From Acidobacteriota bacterium (lineage in GTDB: Bacteria > Acidobacteriota > UBA6911 > RPQK01 > JAJDTT01): a stretch of 64,000 bases of DNA. Below are positions 6,525 through 10,804 of this stretch, one piece after another; the first letter of the stretch is position 1, and every line of letters starts with the position of its first letter. Both the position numbers and the translations under genes were made by a program. The stretch lies in contig CBDCJH010000002.1 in assembly GCA_965217775.1 (NCBI GenBank), positions 4,640,001-4,704,000 of the forward strand, read 5' to 3'. Under the pieces are notes generated by a model, which made no database searches, was not told the origin of the DNA, and saw nothing but the letters and a program-made list of their open reading frames with translations.

Positions 6525-6775
6525 CCCTCCGATGGAAGCAAGACCGCTCACACAGTAGAACGGGGTCCGGTTTCCCCTTCCGTTGACTATCCTGCCTCAT
6601 CCGGCCCCTGGCGCTTTCGCGCCGATTCCCTCCTCCAGGGCCGATTTCGTCTGGTCCTGAGAAAAAAGAAGGGGACTATATAGCGAGAGAGCGAATATCG
6701 GCCCTATGCGGGCCTGTTGGCGTTTGGGCCGGTGTGTTGGGAGGAGAGCGAGTCGCTTAGGGCAAGCCAACCTAG

Positions 6776-6933
6776 CAGCCCGTGGCAAAAGTCATCACGG
6801 CATTCGACCGTCCCTGCATCCCGGCGGACGGCGTTGCTATCGGCTCACATACTCCCGGTATGCACCCGAATCGCGCCTTGTCCGGCGGGCGCAGGAACGG
6901 TCTCGGTGCTCGCGGGACTTTCACCACGGACTG
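6776..6933 (+). mobile_element. MITE family A, copy 1 (158 bp)
   Basis: TIR CAGCCCGTGGCAAAAGTC / GACTTTCACCACGGACTG; TSD CTAG; four near-identical copies in the window. Confidence 0.9.
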
Positions 6934-6937
6934 CTAG

Positions 6938-7065
6938 CCCGCATTTCTCACCAGGTCGCTACGCGTATGATGAAAAATAATCTGTTTTTGAGCATTTACG
7001 CGGAATTTTCCAAGGTTTCTCCGGGACAGACTGCGCTGGGCGCGCGCGCTGATGAGAAATCCGGG
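6938..7065. mobile_element. MITE family B (128 bp)
   Basis: TIR CCCGCATTTCTCA / TGAGAAATCCGGG, flanked by CTAG at 6934-6937 and 7066-7069. Confidence 0.75.
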
Positions 7066-7321
7066 CTAGCTGTTGCGGGGACTGAGGATCAGGATTGCCT
7101 TCGACAACGAACATGCAGTTTCCATTATTCGTTTTCAGCCGCTCGTGACACGGGGCCTTGACGTCATCGCACGATGGATCCTGGATTATGCGGGGCCTGC
7201 GGCTGCCGATCGGTCGCTTTCCGAGATCGAAAGGACGATCACGAGCCGGGCACAAACCCCACACAGGGGATCGATCCGCAATGAAATGGCGACCGGGTTG
7301 CAAGCAATCGGGCTTATATAC

Positions 7322-8659
7322 CTAAGTGCCCTTGGCATACAGTTCTGGCACCACGCTTTCCCCAACGAGATACGTTCCGGTGCCCAGGGCAAGAACCCCA
7401 GCCCTGAGAATGTTCAGGGCGGCATTGTGGTCCCTGTCCATTCCAAGTCCGCAGGCCCTGCACCGGAAGGTTTCGCTCCGCCCTGGATCGTGGCGGGCGC
7501 CGCACCGGTGGCAGTCCTGCGATGTATATCAGCCCGTGGCAAAAGTCGTCACGGCATTCGACCGTCCCTGCATCCCGGCGGACTGCGTTGCGATTCGGGC
7601 ACATACTCCCGGTATGCACCCGAATCGCGCCTTGTCCGGCGGGCGCAGGAACGGTCTCGGTGCTCGCGCGACTTTCACCACGGACTGATATGCGGGATTC
7701 ACTTCTACGAACTTCCGACCGGCCCATTCTGCCTTGTACTGGATTTGATTCCGCAGAAGCCCCCAGGATTGCGTCAGTATTTCTCGATTCAGCCCCTTCT
7801 TCTTCGAGCCCTTCGTTACCATCCCTTGGATGTTCAGCTTCTCCACAGCGATCAGACCGTGCTCACGAATGATCCTGGTGGAGAGACGATGGCAGGCATT
7901 ACGGTTTCGGACCGATTCCCGGTGACGGAGCCGAGATAGCTGTACGATCCGCTTCCGTCTGGTCTTGGAAATCTTCTTGCACCTGGAGACCTTTCTCTGC
8001 TGCTTTCGGATCCCCGCCCAGTCCCGTCTATTCCGTTCGATCCTCTCACCCGTGGACAGCACCGCTCGCTGGCGGACTCCCAGGTCGATCCCCACCGAAG
8101 ACTCGCATTTCGGTAGCGGCGGCTTCTCCACCTCGTACGTCAGGTCCACATACACCCGGTTCGGCTTGCGGACAATCCGCAACGCCTTCAACGGGCATCC
8201 GTCCGGCAACGGCCGGGACGGAAATATCCGGATCGTCGGGAAGCCCTTGGGCCGGATGGCGTAGCCCCGAGCGCGCTTCTTCACCCGGGTCGCCTTGGGG
8301 TCGACGACGTCGATGGTCTCCATCCTCGCAATGGGCCGGAATCGAGGATACCCCGGCTTCTCCCCCGCCTTGCAGCGACGGAAGAACGCCTTGAAGGCCC
8401 GGTCCAACCACATCAACATCCCACGCTCCGCCTTGACCGCCACCGACCCGAGCCCCTCCGGATCGTCCTTCCTCTGGGAGGTCAACCCCTTCATCTGATC
8501 GTACAGGGTCACGCCGCGTTGCTCGGATTCCCAGGCCGTCCTGCGTTCCTCCAGTGCAGCGTTGTACAGCCGATTCAGGATGGACCTCACCCCGTCCAAC
8601 CGCCGGATTCCACCCTTGGACAGCTTGGCTCTGCACTGGATAGTTGCGTGGACTTTCAT
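7322..8659 (-). pseudogene. tnpB: RNA-guided endonuclease TnpB, interrupted by MITE A
   Basis: YNAALEER, GYPRF, GIDLG (RuvC-I), AVEKL (RuvC-II). Removing the MITE and one TSD restores PAYTSQDCHRCG...CRAC...DRDHNAALNI (Zn finger + RuvC-III), 391 aa. Confidence 0.93.
7530..7687 (+). mobile_element. MITE family A, copy 2 (inside tnpB)
   Basis: Same TIRs; TSD ATAT at 7526-7529 and 7688-7691. Confidence 0.92.
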
Positions 8660-8873
8660 GGTAGGAATCGTAACCCATCAGCCTGAATTCTCGGCACTTA
8701 CGTATATAATCCCCCAAGCAATCCCCGGCGGTCGAAAAGCCGTCGTCGCCTTTGCCGTCGACGACGACGCGGGCGAGTTTCTCAGTCATGCCGGGGCCGA
8801 TTGGGTGGCGCAGATGCCTGGAAGGCAAGATGTCGAGGGAGAGAGGGGGGCGGGGCATCTTTTGGGGATTAAG

Positions 8874-10804
8874 CCGAAGTTCCAGACATAGAGACGAGAT
8901 AACTCCTTGATTCTAAAGGGACAACTCACGAAGCGGACTAGTTGTCCACTGGGAACACCTTGACCAACTCCAGCGCCCGTCGCTGCAGCGTCGTCGGTTC
9001 CGTCAATCGTTGCAGCGTCGGACCGTCCGGGTCCGAAGCGGTTCGGCACTGGTGACGGGCACGCGTCGCCATCTCCGCCATCAGTGTCTTGAAGCTGTGA
9101 AGCGGCAGTCCGTCCTCGGTTTCCCGCTTCGTCTTCTTTCGTTTGGCCGAGGCCGACGGCTCGGCTTTCAGCACCGGGTCCCGTCGAGCGCGGTGCGCGT
9201 CCAGGTCCTCGTCATCGAACAACAACGGGGCCAGGGCTCGCCGCAGATGCCACTGGACATAGTAGGCCAGCAGGCACAGGAACAGGTGCGACCGCACCCG
9301 CATCTCTGCCCGGTGACGGATGGGACGGATCTGCAAGTCCACCGTCTTGAGTGAGCGGAAGGCCCGCTCCACGTTCGTCAGGTTCTTGTAGCTGCGCACC
9401 ACGTCGGGCGTCGCCAACCGGTCTTCGGGTTCGCTGGTGCGCAGGATGTAGAATCCGTCCAGTTGCGCCTCGCGGGCGATGGCTTCGGTGCGCCGAGCGT
9501 ATTCGAAGCGCCCGTCTTCGATCACCAGCTCGAAGTGCTTGGCCACCTTGTACCGGTTCTTGATCCGACCCACCTTCAGCGCGATCTGGGTCGCCAGCAA
9601 GGGCGTCTTGGTCCGTCGCGCCACCTCCCGGGCGATCCGGGCCAACTTCTTCTCCGTCTCCGCCACCAGGTCCTGGCGTTTGTTCCGCCGATACTCGGCC
9701 AGCATCGGGTTGTAACAGACGACGAGCCGTTCGCCCGGATAGGCCTCGGTCCGGATCTCCGCCAAGTGACGCTCGTCAAAGAGCGAGGGTTGAACCGCTT
9801 GGGCGTCCACCAGTTGGCGAATGGCCTCATGCCGCAGGGCCGAGATCCAGCCCAGCCCCGGATACCGCTTCAGATGCTTGATCTGAGTCTCGGTCAGCAG
9901 CCCCCGGTCCCCCACCAGCACCACCCGCTTCAAGCCGAAGCGCTGGCGTAACTTCTCGACTTGATCCGGCACCGTGACCGGATCCCCCGTGTTGCCGGGA
10001 TAGGCCTGGACCGCCACCGGACAACCCGCCGCATCGGCCATCACCCCGTAGACCACGATGGGACGGCCCCGCTTGCCGTCCCGGCTGTGGCCGTACTGCA
10101 TCAGGGAGCAGGTGTGGCCTTCATAGTAGCTGCTGCTGACGTCGTAGAGCACGTGATCCCCTTCAGCCAGATGCCGCCGGGCCAGCTTCTTCTCGATCCG
10201 ATTCTGACGTTCGAGCAACCAGTCCATGGCCCCGTACAGGTCGTCCTCGTCGGCGTCCTCCAGGGAGAGCTCGGAAGCCAGGGTGGTGGTGTGCCAGAGC
10301 CGGGTGGTGGCGAGCTTGGAGGCGGGATGCAACAAGCGCTGAATGATCAGGGCCAGCACCAGGTTGCGCTGGCGCGAGGGCTTGGGGTCGATCAGAGTCG
10401 GGAGCTTCAGGCGGCGGATGGCTTTGAGAACCATCTCGACATGGCCATGAGGAAGGGAGCGTTCGATGACGAAGAGCTCATCGGGGTGGACGAGAGGGAC
10501 GTTCTTGAGGACGAGACGGAGTCGCTGGATCTTGTCCGGGGGCCACTTGGAGAGGTTGGCGATGGTGCGTTTACGGACGCGCTTGCCTTCGCGCCAGCCT
10601 TCGCGCAGGAGGATGGCGGGGCGGGAGTTTCGGTTGGGGACGGTGTCGATGTACATGGCAACTAGTATATAGAATATACCTTTTATATTCAACAGGAAGA
10701 GTCATCACATACATGGGAACACAAATGAGCTGATTCAGAGCCGTATCCGTAATAAAATCAACGACTTAGCTCGATTTTAGGGGGATATTTTCCCGGAACT
10801 TCCG
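8874..10804 (-). mobile_element. IS1634-family insertion sequence
   Basis: Ends CCGAAGTTCC / GGAACTTCCG; TSD ATTAAG at 8868-8873 and 10805-10810. Confidence 0.85.
8938..10656 (-). CDS. IS1634 family DDE transposase
   Basis: MYIDTVPNRNSRPAILLRE N-terminus; YDVSSSYYEG, VGDRG, YKNLTNVERAFRSLK. Confidence 0.93.
   Translation of the reverse strand: MYIDTVPNRNSRPAILLREGWREGKRVRKRTIANLSKWPPDKIQRLRLVLKNVPLVHPDELFVIERSLPHGHVEMVLKAIRRLKLPTLIDPKPSRQRNLVLALIIQRLLHPASKLATTRLWHTTTLASELSLEDADEDDLYGAMDWLLERQNRIEKKLARRHLAEGDHVLYDVSSSYYEGHTCSLMQYGHSRDGKRGRPIVVYGVMADAAGCPVAVQAYPGNTGDPVTVPDQVEKLRQRFGLKRVVLVGDRGLLTETQIKHLKRYPGLGWISALRHEAIRQLVDAQAVQPSLFDERHLAEIRTEAYPGERLVVCYNPMLAEYRRNKRQDLVAETEKKLARIAREVARRTKTPLLATQIALKVGRIKNRYKVAKHFELVIEDGRFEYARRTEAIAREAQLDGFYILRTSEPEDRLATPDVVRSYKNLTNVERAFRSLKTVDLQIRPIRHRAEMRVRSHLFLCLLAYYVQWHLRRALAPLLFDDEDLDAHRARRDPVLKAEPSASAKRKKTKRETEDGLPLHSFKTLMAEMATRARHQCRTASDPDGPTLQRLTEPTTLQRRALELVKVFPVDN

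Follow-up and report, generated by a model that had tools for sequence, protein, structure and literature searches.

Introduction

The benefit that a TnpB nuclease brings to its transposon has been worked out only for IS605 and IS607 elements, in which excision is scarless and the TAM is fixed by the transposase. ISDra2, of the IS200/IS605 family, relies on a Y1 transposase that mobilises it as single-stranded DNA; it has neither inverted ends nor target-site duplications, and uses a 5-nt TAM (TTGAT) that is the transposase's own target. The IS1595 family, reportedly treated by Siguier et al. in 2009 and in ISfinder, is said to contain, in its ISNwi1-like group, members with passenger genes.

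TnpB has also been connected with DDE transposases. Altae-Tran et al. (2023, PNAS, PMC10691335) described six DDE-transposase-associated branches, DDE-1 to DDE-6, with inverted terminal repeats, together with solo TnpBs that have the same ends and were inferred to be mobilised in trans; the DDE partner named in the description of these branches is IS630, and IS1595 appears in the supplementary PDF only within a list of CDD profiles for mobility statistics. A 2026 review (PMC13565253) calls the rare DDE-linked prokaryotic TnpB systems uncharacterised, lists ISL2, IS630 and IS1031 as partners, IS1595 not being among those listed, and raises the question of what reason a cut-and-paste element would have to retain a nuclease of this sort. 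In eukaryotes, Fanzor nucleases ride DDE transposons (Bao and Jurka 2013, PMC3627910); in Fanzor elements the 5′ duplication contributes to the TAM, and the Fanzor1 scaffold is described as having no 3′ pseudoknot (PMC13565253). Judged by titles and abstracts, no paper pairing TnpB with IS1595, ISNwi1 or related groups was found in the literature.

Here, we describe a TnpB element from the genome of an Acidobacteriota bacterium, found in a stretch of 64,000 nucleotides (the window). Positions 7309–8714 very probably hold a decayed, non-autonomous IS1595-family element whose sole cargo is a TnpB nuclease with its predicted guide-RNA scaffold. The preliminary description of the locus overstated the novelty of a TnpB between DDE-type inverted ends, as the general architecture, in both DDE-associated and solo TnpBs, was already published in 2023 (PMC10691335); what is fresh are the mechanistic leads. 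New here are a covarying scaffold in which the six terminal bases of the transposon pair with the loop of a hairpin, a G at position −1 that marks tnpB insertions and stands near chance in control elements, and RNA-library contigs that reveal an unoccupied site as well as insertions at places where the host genome has none.

Results

Structure of the element and of the disrupted gene

The preliminary description had placed tnpB, as the single gene of a cassette, between 22-nt inverted repeats flanked by an 8-bp duplication, with its stop codon inside one of the repeats, and all of this is borne out (Table 1): the two ends are identical at 19 of 22 bases, the same octamer lies on both sides, and there is no other sizeable gene between the ends. 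The 17-nt core of the inverted end occurs twice in the window, against an expectation of 0.01, and the duplications of the element sit at AT-rich octamers. In its intact form, the element measures 1244 bp. With its insert removed, the window copy and an intact genomic copy disagree at 21 of these 1244 positions (1.7% substitutions), the outermost base of its right end is mutated (AGCCCG instead of AGCCCC in the RNA sense), and a MITE splits its tnpB; this copy is dead. The frame of tnpB is nevertheless preserved across the insert, because 162 nt is a multiple of three. Used as a blastn query, the MITE insert gave 267 matches in the genome, in which nested mobile elements, such as this one in the window copy, are common.

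Table 1. Coordinates of the features in the window
Feature	Position	Strand	Remarks
ParE-like gene, N-terminal part	7073..7308	+	ParE_toxin below Pfam cut-off: E 3.9e-4, 21.4 bits vs 23
8-bp target-site duplication, 3′ of tnpB	7301..7308		CAAGCAAT on +, ATTGCTTG in tnpB orientation; predicted guide start
Right (tnpB-distal) terminal inverted repeat	7309..7330	-	CGGGCTTATATACCTAAGTGCC; holds tnpB stop codon
Predicted guide-RNA (omega RNA) scaffold	7309..7406	-	Overlaps tnpB 3′ end; coordinates transferred from copy L005 and checked against window sequence
Predicted pseudoknot partner of hairpin i loop	7309-7314	-	Last 6 nt of transposon end
tnpB 3′ fragment	7322..7529	-	Residues ~322-391: zinc finger, RuvC-III, stop (7322-7324)
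Predicted scaffold stem ii	7379-7384 with 7347-7352	-	GGCACC/GGTGCC; encloses small hairpin
Predicted scaffold hairpin i	7401-7406 with 7385-7390	-	Loop GGGGTT at 7394-7399
Insert splitting tnpB	7530..7691		162 nt = 158-nt MITE + 4-nt ATAT duplication
tnpB 5′ fragment	7692..8659	-	ATG at 8659; residues 1 to ~322, RuvC-I and RuvC-II
Left (tnpB-proximal) terminal inverted repeat	8693..8714	+	Reverse complement = GGGGATTATATACGTAAGTGCC
8-bp target-site duplication, 5′ of tnpB	8715..8722		CAAGCAAT
Candidate TAM base, G (C on +)	8723..8723	-	Adjoins left duplication on its 5′ side, in tnpB orientation
Disrupted ParE-like frame, C-terminal remainder	8723..8891	+	Same reading frame

The TnpB of an intact copy (L001) matches NF040570 with 213 bits (cut-off 100), PF07282 with 91 bits and PF01385 with 65 bits. 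Its closest solved relative is ISDra2 TnpB (PDB 8BF8, 8EXA, 8H1J; E 1e-31 over residues 31–375), with which it has in common the D-E-D RuvC triad and the zinc finger. The three RuvC acidic residues and the zinc finger noted at the outset were confirmed in intact relatives: D192, E273 and D356, called catalytic by motif position, are invariant among eight subfamily representatives, as are C329, C332, C346 and C349.

Removal of the element together with one copy of the duplication rejoins a single reading frame (GLQAI–PGGRK across the junction), as had been proposed; the identification of that frame as ParE is less firm, the ParE_toxin match being sub-threshold and confined to the N-terminal part, and the C-terminal remainder matching no family by itself.

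Copies, subfamilies and distribution

The search for further copies bounded by the same repeats was productive. The host genome holds 12 copies of the 1244-bp element (subfamily 1) with identical boundaries, 10 of which have an uninterrupted 391-codon tnpB, and 11 are flanked by 8-bp duplications (10 perfect, one with a single mismatch) that all differ from one another. Six subfamilies, all with these ends, are found in the host's genus of Acidobacteriota, where 24 of the 27 elements with both ends have an 8-bp duplication with at most one mismatch (21 perfect), every site being different. The same end type accompanies TnpB relatives at 42–54% identity in Binatia, Bryobacterales and Chloroflexota: 26 elements of other phyla have GGGAATTATATAC-type ends, with a duplication of at most one mismatch in 16. 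Relatives at about 30% identity have no such ends.

The clade is present in 6 of 41 relatives, all of one genus, and in 3 of 401 genomes (1 of 227 genera) in a phylum-wide search. Among 11 loci from a metagenome scan, two belong to the clade (45% identity); in these two, as in a SAR202 locus (L089), there is an inverted repeat of 17 nt, but a GGGAATTATA terminus cannot be recognised, and all three were counted as misses. Two further loci, one running off its contig (L082) and one with no recognisable left end (L083), stood outside the assessment of ends.

A resident IS1595 transposase with matching ends

A search for an IS1595 transposase with the same ends, suggested together with the search for copies, found one in the host genome itself. 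Five 1762-bp elements, with 8-bp duplications of their own, encode an IS1595-family transposase (PF12762 E 1.8e-38; NF033547 177 bits), and their ends, GGGGATTATATACGAAAGTGCC, are identical to those of the tnpB element at 21 of 22 bases on the left and 19 of 22 on the right. The transposase is thus located on separate elements, of 1762 bp and 1531 bp. Perfect 8-bp duplications flank 17 of the 23 elements that bear a transposase, and matching transposase-bearing ends are also present in the Bryobacterales, Dehalococcoidia and Binatia genomes that hold distant TnpB elements; comparable pairings of ends are seen in three other phyla. Closely matching inner repeats in a transposase partner are found for subfamily 1 only; the other subfamilies have just the outer 10–13 nt in common with any transposase element found.

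No composite of transposase and tnpB was seen when the IS1595 transposase was searched by tblastn against 79 loci with 2.5-kb flanks (0/79), so a survey of gene neighbours would miss the link between TnpB and IS1595. The tnpB element has the matching ends and the 8-bp duplication of the family and no DDE transposase of its own; it is not an autonomous IS1595 member, tnpB being its only gene, and judging from the ends it would be moved in trans by the IS1595 transposase. The proposal that a non-autonomous DDE element recruited an OMEGA nuclease is therefore supported by a multi-copy element and a resident IS1595 transposase with near-identical ends.

With the ISNwi1-like group, as it is reportedly defined, the system has in common the 8-bp duplications, GGnnATTAT-type termini and a PF12762/NF033547 zinc-ribbon transposase on the partner element; it differs in that the tnpB element is without transposase, carries an RNA-guided nuclease, and has a right end that doubles as predicted scaffold. 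Elements of IS200/IS605 and IS607 have, in place of inverted ends and duplications, subterminal hairpin ends or GG termini, with a fixed target of 4–5 nt beside the left end. The nuclease is of one protein family with those of IS200/IS605 and IS607, but by transposition machinery the element is not filed with them, because it has inverted ends and duplications and little sequence on either side of tnpB. The inverted repeats and the proximity of the tnpB 3′ end to the transposon end recall DDE-1 to DDE-6 and the solo TnpBs as these are described (PMC10691335); the present copies differ in never adjoining a transposase.

A scaffold that reaches the last base of the transposon

The GGCACC/GGTGCC stem flagged earlier as omegaRNA-like is real and covaries among relatives, and it is part of a larger putative structure: the predicted RNA fold, conserved and covarying, takes in the final ~100 nt of tnpB and extends as far as the terminal base of the right end. 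The alignment supports 25 pairs, with 98.9% of their cells paired and with changes on both sides in 12 of the pairs; none of 500 shuffles reached this value, and slid controls gave 35–47%. A hairpin with a GGG loop is present in 44 of 46 distinct 3′ ends, where 3 of the 44 rows (loops GGGCCG or GGGCCT) are regular-expression mis-registrations in the L010-type hairpin. The loop covaries with the terminus, GGGGTT occurring with AGCCCC, GGGAAT with ATTCCC, and GGGACT with AGTCCC. Such a pseudoknot, built from the last six bases of the end, fits the earlier proposal that the scaffold finishes with the inverted end and the guide begins at the duplication. An Rfam scan of an intact copy returned no family, with one sub-threshold chance match (COG3860, 16 bits against 42.5).

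Some of the compensatory changes alter the protein (AGVL or AGNI in the loop codons); together with the invariant catalytic residues, the compensatory RNA changes argue for selection on a working nuclease-RNA pair. ISDra2 TnpB, as described, likewise has a scaffold that overlaps the 3′ end of the gene and a pseudoknot next to the guide, whereas the present element has inverted ends and 8-bp duplications. Fanzor elements, in published descriptions, also combine a TnpB-type nuclease with inverted ends and duplications; they are eukaryotic or viral and longer, and the present family, unlike them, keeps a 3′ pseudoknot, which would be built from the transposon end. One DNA end would thereby serve two machines, the transposase and the guide RNA, and such a dual-use end may explain how the nuclease is able to switch transposon partners.

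A G beside the insertion site

In the orientation of tnpB, the base at −1 of the left duplication is G in 39 of 40 duplication-flanked insertions (23 of 24 in the host genus, all 16 of those in other phyla), and likewise in two of two further Bryobacterales copies. By contrast, 17 transposase-bearing elements with ends of this type, taken as controls, have G at −1 in 6 cases and C at +1 in 5. The difference is significant (Fisher p = 3.8e-5; background G 22–29%), with the proviso that such p-values overstate it, because insertions within a lineage, though separate events, stem from related elements.

This position is where a TAM should lie. The motifs of studied IS605 elements comprise 4–5 nt (as given in PMC13565253), far more than the one strongly conserved base seen here, so that part of the TAM may lie within the duplication, or else the G may have arisen from some other cause. 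Two further accounts of the G were rejected: a nine-base duplication that includes it, as what precedes the right duplication is the end's own C, and a hybrid promoter formed by G and duplication, as the spacing to a −10-like hexamer is unfit and the inner repeats differ between subfamilies.

Discussion

A nuclease that may select insertions

We propose that transcription would read through the right end, so that each copy could make a guide from its own 3′ duplication and flank. The TnpB-RNA complex would then recognise the empty allele, that is, the G followed by the 8-bp target and the 3′ flank, with the G as all or part of the TAM. The occupied allele would escape, since the last base of the right end is C. 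Once empty alleles were cut, recombination would copy in the occupied one, and insertions that happened to land next to a G would preferentially persist. It is thus quite conceivable, although in our judgement slightly short of probable, that the nuclease rather than the transposase decides which insertions of a DDE transposon survive, and that the G at −1 is a footprint of homing or retention.

If so, the guide RNA would be welded to a transposon end, three partners would co-evolve (the RNA loop, the transposon end and the mirror copy of that end), and the TAM would be satisfied only by landing beside a G. The near-universal G would then be the mark left in natural populations where a cut-and-paste element that makes duplications is subject to RNA-guided homing or retention. 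Such a drive would aid spread across phyla; the RNA libraries that hold the element share one habitat label. The family offers a testable case, being compact at 1244 bp, with intact copies and a matching transposase in the same genome, clear scaffold boundaries and a TAM base predicted from 40 natural insertions.

Alternative explanations

TnpB could instead be an inert passenger on a cassette moved in trans by IS1595, the G reflecting an asymmetric target preference of a transposase acting on unequal ends. DDE elements would gain little from an OMEGA nuclease, according to the review's argument that their excision already leaves a break (PMC13565253), the ends of subfamily 1 do differ at positions 5 and 14, and many copies are decaying, among them the window copy, C2:2358592 and several fragments. 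We nonetheless consider this account unlikely, since the G bias is also seen where both ends have the same outer 10 nt (L013 and L021 types) and holds across four phyla, G is no commoner than chance in transposase-bearing elements that share the outer ends, and the catalytic residues are invariant beside a scaffold kept by compensatory changes, protein-altering ones included.

Less probable still than a passive cargo is a mover outside IS1595, or a spread mainly by TnpB-driven homing after horizontal transfer, with the IS1595-like ends being ancestral only. In its favour are a Caldilineaceae genome that has about 25 copies and no match to NF033547, and another genome (G005) whose five copies are accompanied by a transposase only as a broken fragment with a stop codon. 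A transposase can, however, be lost or reside on unassembled plasmids or phages; in 4 of the 5 distant hosts, the genome does contain IS1595 transposase genes with related ends, and a different 8-bp duplication at each site is the staggered-cut footprint of a DDE-type enzyme.

That an ordinary IS605/IS607-type tnpB element landed inside a pre-existing IS1595-derived MITE, a possibility raised at the outset and in keeping with the frequent nesting in this genome and the MITE in the window copy, is already contradicted and hardly credible: only 55 nt before tnpB and 13 nt after its stop lie within the ends, which leaves no room for IS605/IS607 ends, the stop is inside an inverted end whose terminal bases are used by the predicted pseudoknot, boundaries agree in 12 of 12 copies, and the ends abut tnpB in every subfamily and in relatives down to 42% identity.

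Traces in RNA libraries

Within the element, the terminator scan found no terminator-like site, and the promoter scan found no sigma-70-like promoter before tnpB. The RNA data are assembled contigs that give neither strand, start nor level and may include carried-over DNA; differences in contig depth were left unused, as contig depth cannot rank regions. Among these contigs, some extend beyond the right end, where three different flanking sequences follow; two of these are absent among the copies of the host genome. The element is multi-copy and polymorphic, and public RNA libraries show empty sites as well as newly occupied ones: one contig, found in four libraries of one study, joins position 1440 of L005 to position 2693, and the 1252 nt that it skips are exactly the element plus one duplication, as at an empty site.

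Organization of the window copy

Our analysis supports the interpretation of the element in the preliminary description, namely a TnpB nuclease recruited by a non-autonomous DDE element of IS1595 type. Sequence reading confirmed every part of that description at the window locus (the ends, the 8-bp repeat, tnpB and the stop codon falling within an inverted end). The two ends are identical at 19 of 22 bases, and the 64-kb window holds their 17-nt core at exactly two places, where 0.01 would be expected. Taking out the element with one repeat copy restores a single open frame (GLQAI/PGGRK), whose N-terminal piece has a sub-threshold likeness to ParE in Pfam (E 3.9e-4, 21.4 bits vs a cut-off of 23). 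The insert that splits tnpB leaves its frame intact because its length is a multiple of three, and its MITE gives 267 blastn matches across the source genome, G000, in which the window spans C2:4640001-4704000. The window copy is dead.

Features of the window copy and its surroundings
Feature	Position	Strand	Remark
8-bp direct repeat CAAGCAAT	7301-7308 and 8715-8722		sequence reading
Inverted end	7309-7330		sequence reading
Inverted end	8693-8714		sequence reading
tnpB, sole sizeable gene between ends	ATG at 8659, stop 7322-7324	minus	
162-nt insert splitting tnpB	7530-7691		158-nt hairpin MITE and 4-nt ATAT duplication
Further copy of the same MITE	about 6773-6945		
30-nt inverted repeat	6930-6959 and 7044-7073		83% complementary, 84 nt between arms
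DDE_Tnp_1 transposase gene, 584 aa	8938-10692	minus	PF01609 E 5e-11

The 30-nt inverted repeat sits immediately upstream of the ParE-like start and the DDE_Tnp_1 gene directly adjoins the ParE-like remnant, with three kinds of mobile element gathered within 4 kb at this locus.

The tnpB product matches the guided_TnpB profile at 213 bits, as well as PF07282 and PF01385, and its closest relative of solved structure is ISDra2 TnpB (E 1e-31). Residues D192, E273 and D356, together with four cysteines, are invariant across eight subfamily representatives.

Intact copies and an IS1595-family partner

A whole-genome search of G000 with the end core gave 37 matches, which pair into 11 additional copies of the 1244-bp tnpB element, one with a 1-nt deletion in the right end and one disrupted (1265 bp). 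Thus, other copies bounded by terminal inverted repeats with different 8-bp duplications do exist: the insertion sites are all distinct, and the duplication is perfect in 10 of the 12 copies, carries a single mismatch in one and is missing in one. An uninterrupted 391-codon tnpB is present in 10 copies. In the intact element, tnpB begins at position 56 and only 13 nt separate its stop codon from the element end, which rules out nested IS605/IS607 ends, since too little DNA flanks the gene to hold them. Three otherwise complete elements (L009, L018 and L011, the last at G000 C2:1186780-1188023) have 8-bp flanks that do not match, the pattern that would be expected from inter-copy recombination (a rearrangement breakpoint).

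The same search also yielded five 1762-bp elements and one 1531-bp element, whose ORFs of 334-347 aa encode IS1595-family transposases (PF12762 E 1.8e-38; NF033547 177-188 bits, cut-off 75). The 1762-bp element has GGGGATTATATACGAAAGTGCC ends, which are identical to the left end of the tnpB element at 21/22 bases and to the right end at 19/22, and the transposase-bearing elements likewise generate 8-bp duplications; an IS1595 transposase with near-identical ends, as sought by the proposed check, is found in G000 itself. No IS1595 transposase lies within 2.5 kb of tnpB at any of 79 loci, all of which are solo cassettes. IS1595 transposases are also encoded in four of five distant host genomes, where the ends of the transposase-bearing elements resemble those of the same genome's tnpB element, the best match being Bryobacterales, in which the two are alike over about 34 nt. 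A Caldilineaceae genome (G041, loci L086-L111) gave no match to NF033547 despite many tnpB copies bounded by inverted repeats, and another genome with many such copies, G005, held no intact IS1595 transposase, only one broken fragment with a stop codon.

In the 1762-bp element (region L004 1148-1862), the transposase is followed by about 600 bp of additional DNA, holding a 110-aa ORF that is barely at the Pfam cut-off for NA-iREase1 (27.6 bits, cut-off 27) and weakly resembles Mrr_cat; this region may be a passenger nuclease remnant.

A covarying scaffold that reaches the transposon end

The final 125 nt were aligned for 16 elements, and a predicted structure was scored against the alignment. 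It starts with a hairpin, followed by an outer stem that surrounds a second, small hairpin; in addition, the loop of the first hairpin forms a pseudoknot with the element's six terminal bases. The outer stem is the GGCACC/GGTGCC pairing already noted in the preliminary description. Pairing is maintained in 98.9% of 375 cells, with changes on both sides in 12 of 25 pairs, while none of 500 shuffles scored as high and sliding partners reached 35-47%. Among 46 distinct 3' ends, other phyla included, a hairpin with a GGG loop is present in 44, and in nearly all of them the sequence that best complements the terminal 7-mer lies in the hairpin loop. Loop and terminus change together, as GGGGTT with AGCCCC (16), GGGAAT with ATTCCC (15) and GGGACT with AGTCCC (1), in a tally where three rows were mis-registered by the search pattern; at pseudoknot pair 4, 24 have G-C and 16 have A-T, and at pair 5, 19 have U-G, 16 have A-U and 2 have C-G.

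The hairpin loop overlaps codons, and the loop change alters the protein (AGVL vs AGNI), which points to selection acting on the RNA. As the pseudoknot uses the terminal six bases, the guide-RNA scaffold reaches the element's final base, and the 3' duplication should supply the guide from its first base onward; this fits the earlier proposal that the inverted repeat forms the last part of the scaffold and the guide starts at the duplication. The outer end is doubly constrained, by the transposase and by the RNA. Most lineages also have a terminal hairpin formed by the right end's inner portion. No Rfam family matches the scaffold.

A G preceding the insertion site

Elements were oriented by tnpB before scoring the base immediately 5' of the left duplication (-1), which is G in 39 of 40 duplication-flanked insertions from the genus and other phyla, far above chance. 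All 24 genus insertions have a duplication that starts with A.

Base composition at the flanks of the duplications
Set	G at -1	Background G	C at +1
tnpB elements, this genus	23/24	29%	
tnpB elements, other phyla	16/16	22%	2/16
tnpB elements, other phyla, all delimited	25/26		
Two Bryobacterales copies	2/2		
Transposase-bearing elements, same end type, perfect duplications	6/17		5/17 (about chance)

Compared with the genus tnpB set, the transposase-bearing elements differ at -1 with a Fisher p of 3.8e-5, which overstates the significance given the non-independence of related elements. The bias tracks cargo orientation rather than end asymmetry, because it persists in subfamilies with identical outer bases at both ends. 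The left-flank G and the right-flank guide adjoin only in the empty site, which is a TAM-target arrangement, and the occupied site is without the G because the right end terminates in C. Our inference is that this G makes up the TAM or the 3'-most part of it. A motif of one base is shorter than usual, and the motif may extend into the duplication, by analogy with Fanzor, for which the text of a review (PMC13565253) gives a TAM reaching into the duplication.

Distribution and relation to known systems

With membership among relatives set at E at most 1e-20, the clade is present in 6 of 41 related genomes, all of one genus, and in 3 of 401 sampled genomes of the phylum. All 27 elements delimited in the genus, representing at least six subfamilies (60-100% amino-acid identity), have GGGGMTTATA-type inverted ends at both termini, with inner parts that vary by subfamily, and 24 have duplications with at most one mismatch. 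A cross-phylum scan of one genome per species recovered relatives at 42-54% identity in Binatia, Bryobacterales, Caldilineaceae, Dehalococcoidia and SAR202, including about 25 copies in a single Caldilineaceae genome. Ends of the GGGAATTATATAC type were found on 26 of these relatives, 16 of them with duplications of at most one mismatch. Counted as misses were L082, which extends past the contig edge, L083, which has no recognisable left end, and L089 with its metagenomic twins L163 and L166, which show the inner 17-nt repeat only. Convincing inverted ends were not found in more distant TnpBs (about 30% identity; Endozoicomonas, Paenibacillus, Clostridiales and others). Horizontal transfer is suggested by the patchy spread across phyla, and the lineages involved may live in a common habitat.

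The text of Altae-Tran et al. (2023; PMC10691335) describes six DDE-associated TnpB branches, all with inverted terminal repeats, naming IS630 and inferring mobilisation in trans for solo TnpBs that share those ends, and that of the 2026 review (PMC13565253) names ISL2, IS630 and IS1031 and terms such systems rare and uncharacterised. Neither text names IS1595 as a TnpB partner, although the tree, Fig. 4 and the Additional Files of the 2023 paper may bear on this point, and literature searches combining TnpB with IS1595-group names returned no paper on the pairing. The architecture belongs to a kind published in 2023, which lessens the novelty of the preliminary interpretation; within that kind, the present clade has an IS1595 partner and is purely non-autonomous. 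The analysis adds four things: a matched transposase encoded by the genome that holds the element, a pseudoknot linking the RNA with the end of the transposon, the G found at -1 in 39/40 duplication-flanked insertions, and the empty and new insertion sites in RNA libraries.

An empty allele and candidate further insertion sites in metatranscriptomes

A single study with the label sponge metagenome supplied four metatranscriptome libraries in which the tnpB element is present, and their contigs were aligned to L005, a locus with an intact copy; such contigs do not give strand, ends or levels, and the libraries may contain carried-over DNA. The element has no terminator-like site, and at L005 no contig from the four libraries crosses the left end besides one that joins positions 1440 and 2693. 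The 1252 nt missing from this contig correspond exactly to the element together with one duplication, so that it represents an empty allele. Over the right end, contigs run into three different flanks, one belonging to a known G000 copy and two absent from G000. The flanks matching none of the G000 copies, seen as loose ends at L005 2690-2693 in runs X2 and X4, would be insertion sites in the sampled population that are absent from the G000 genome.
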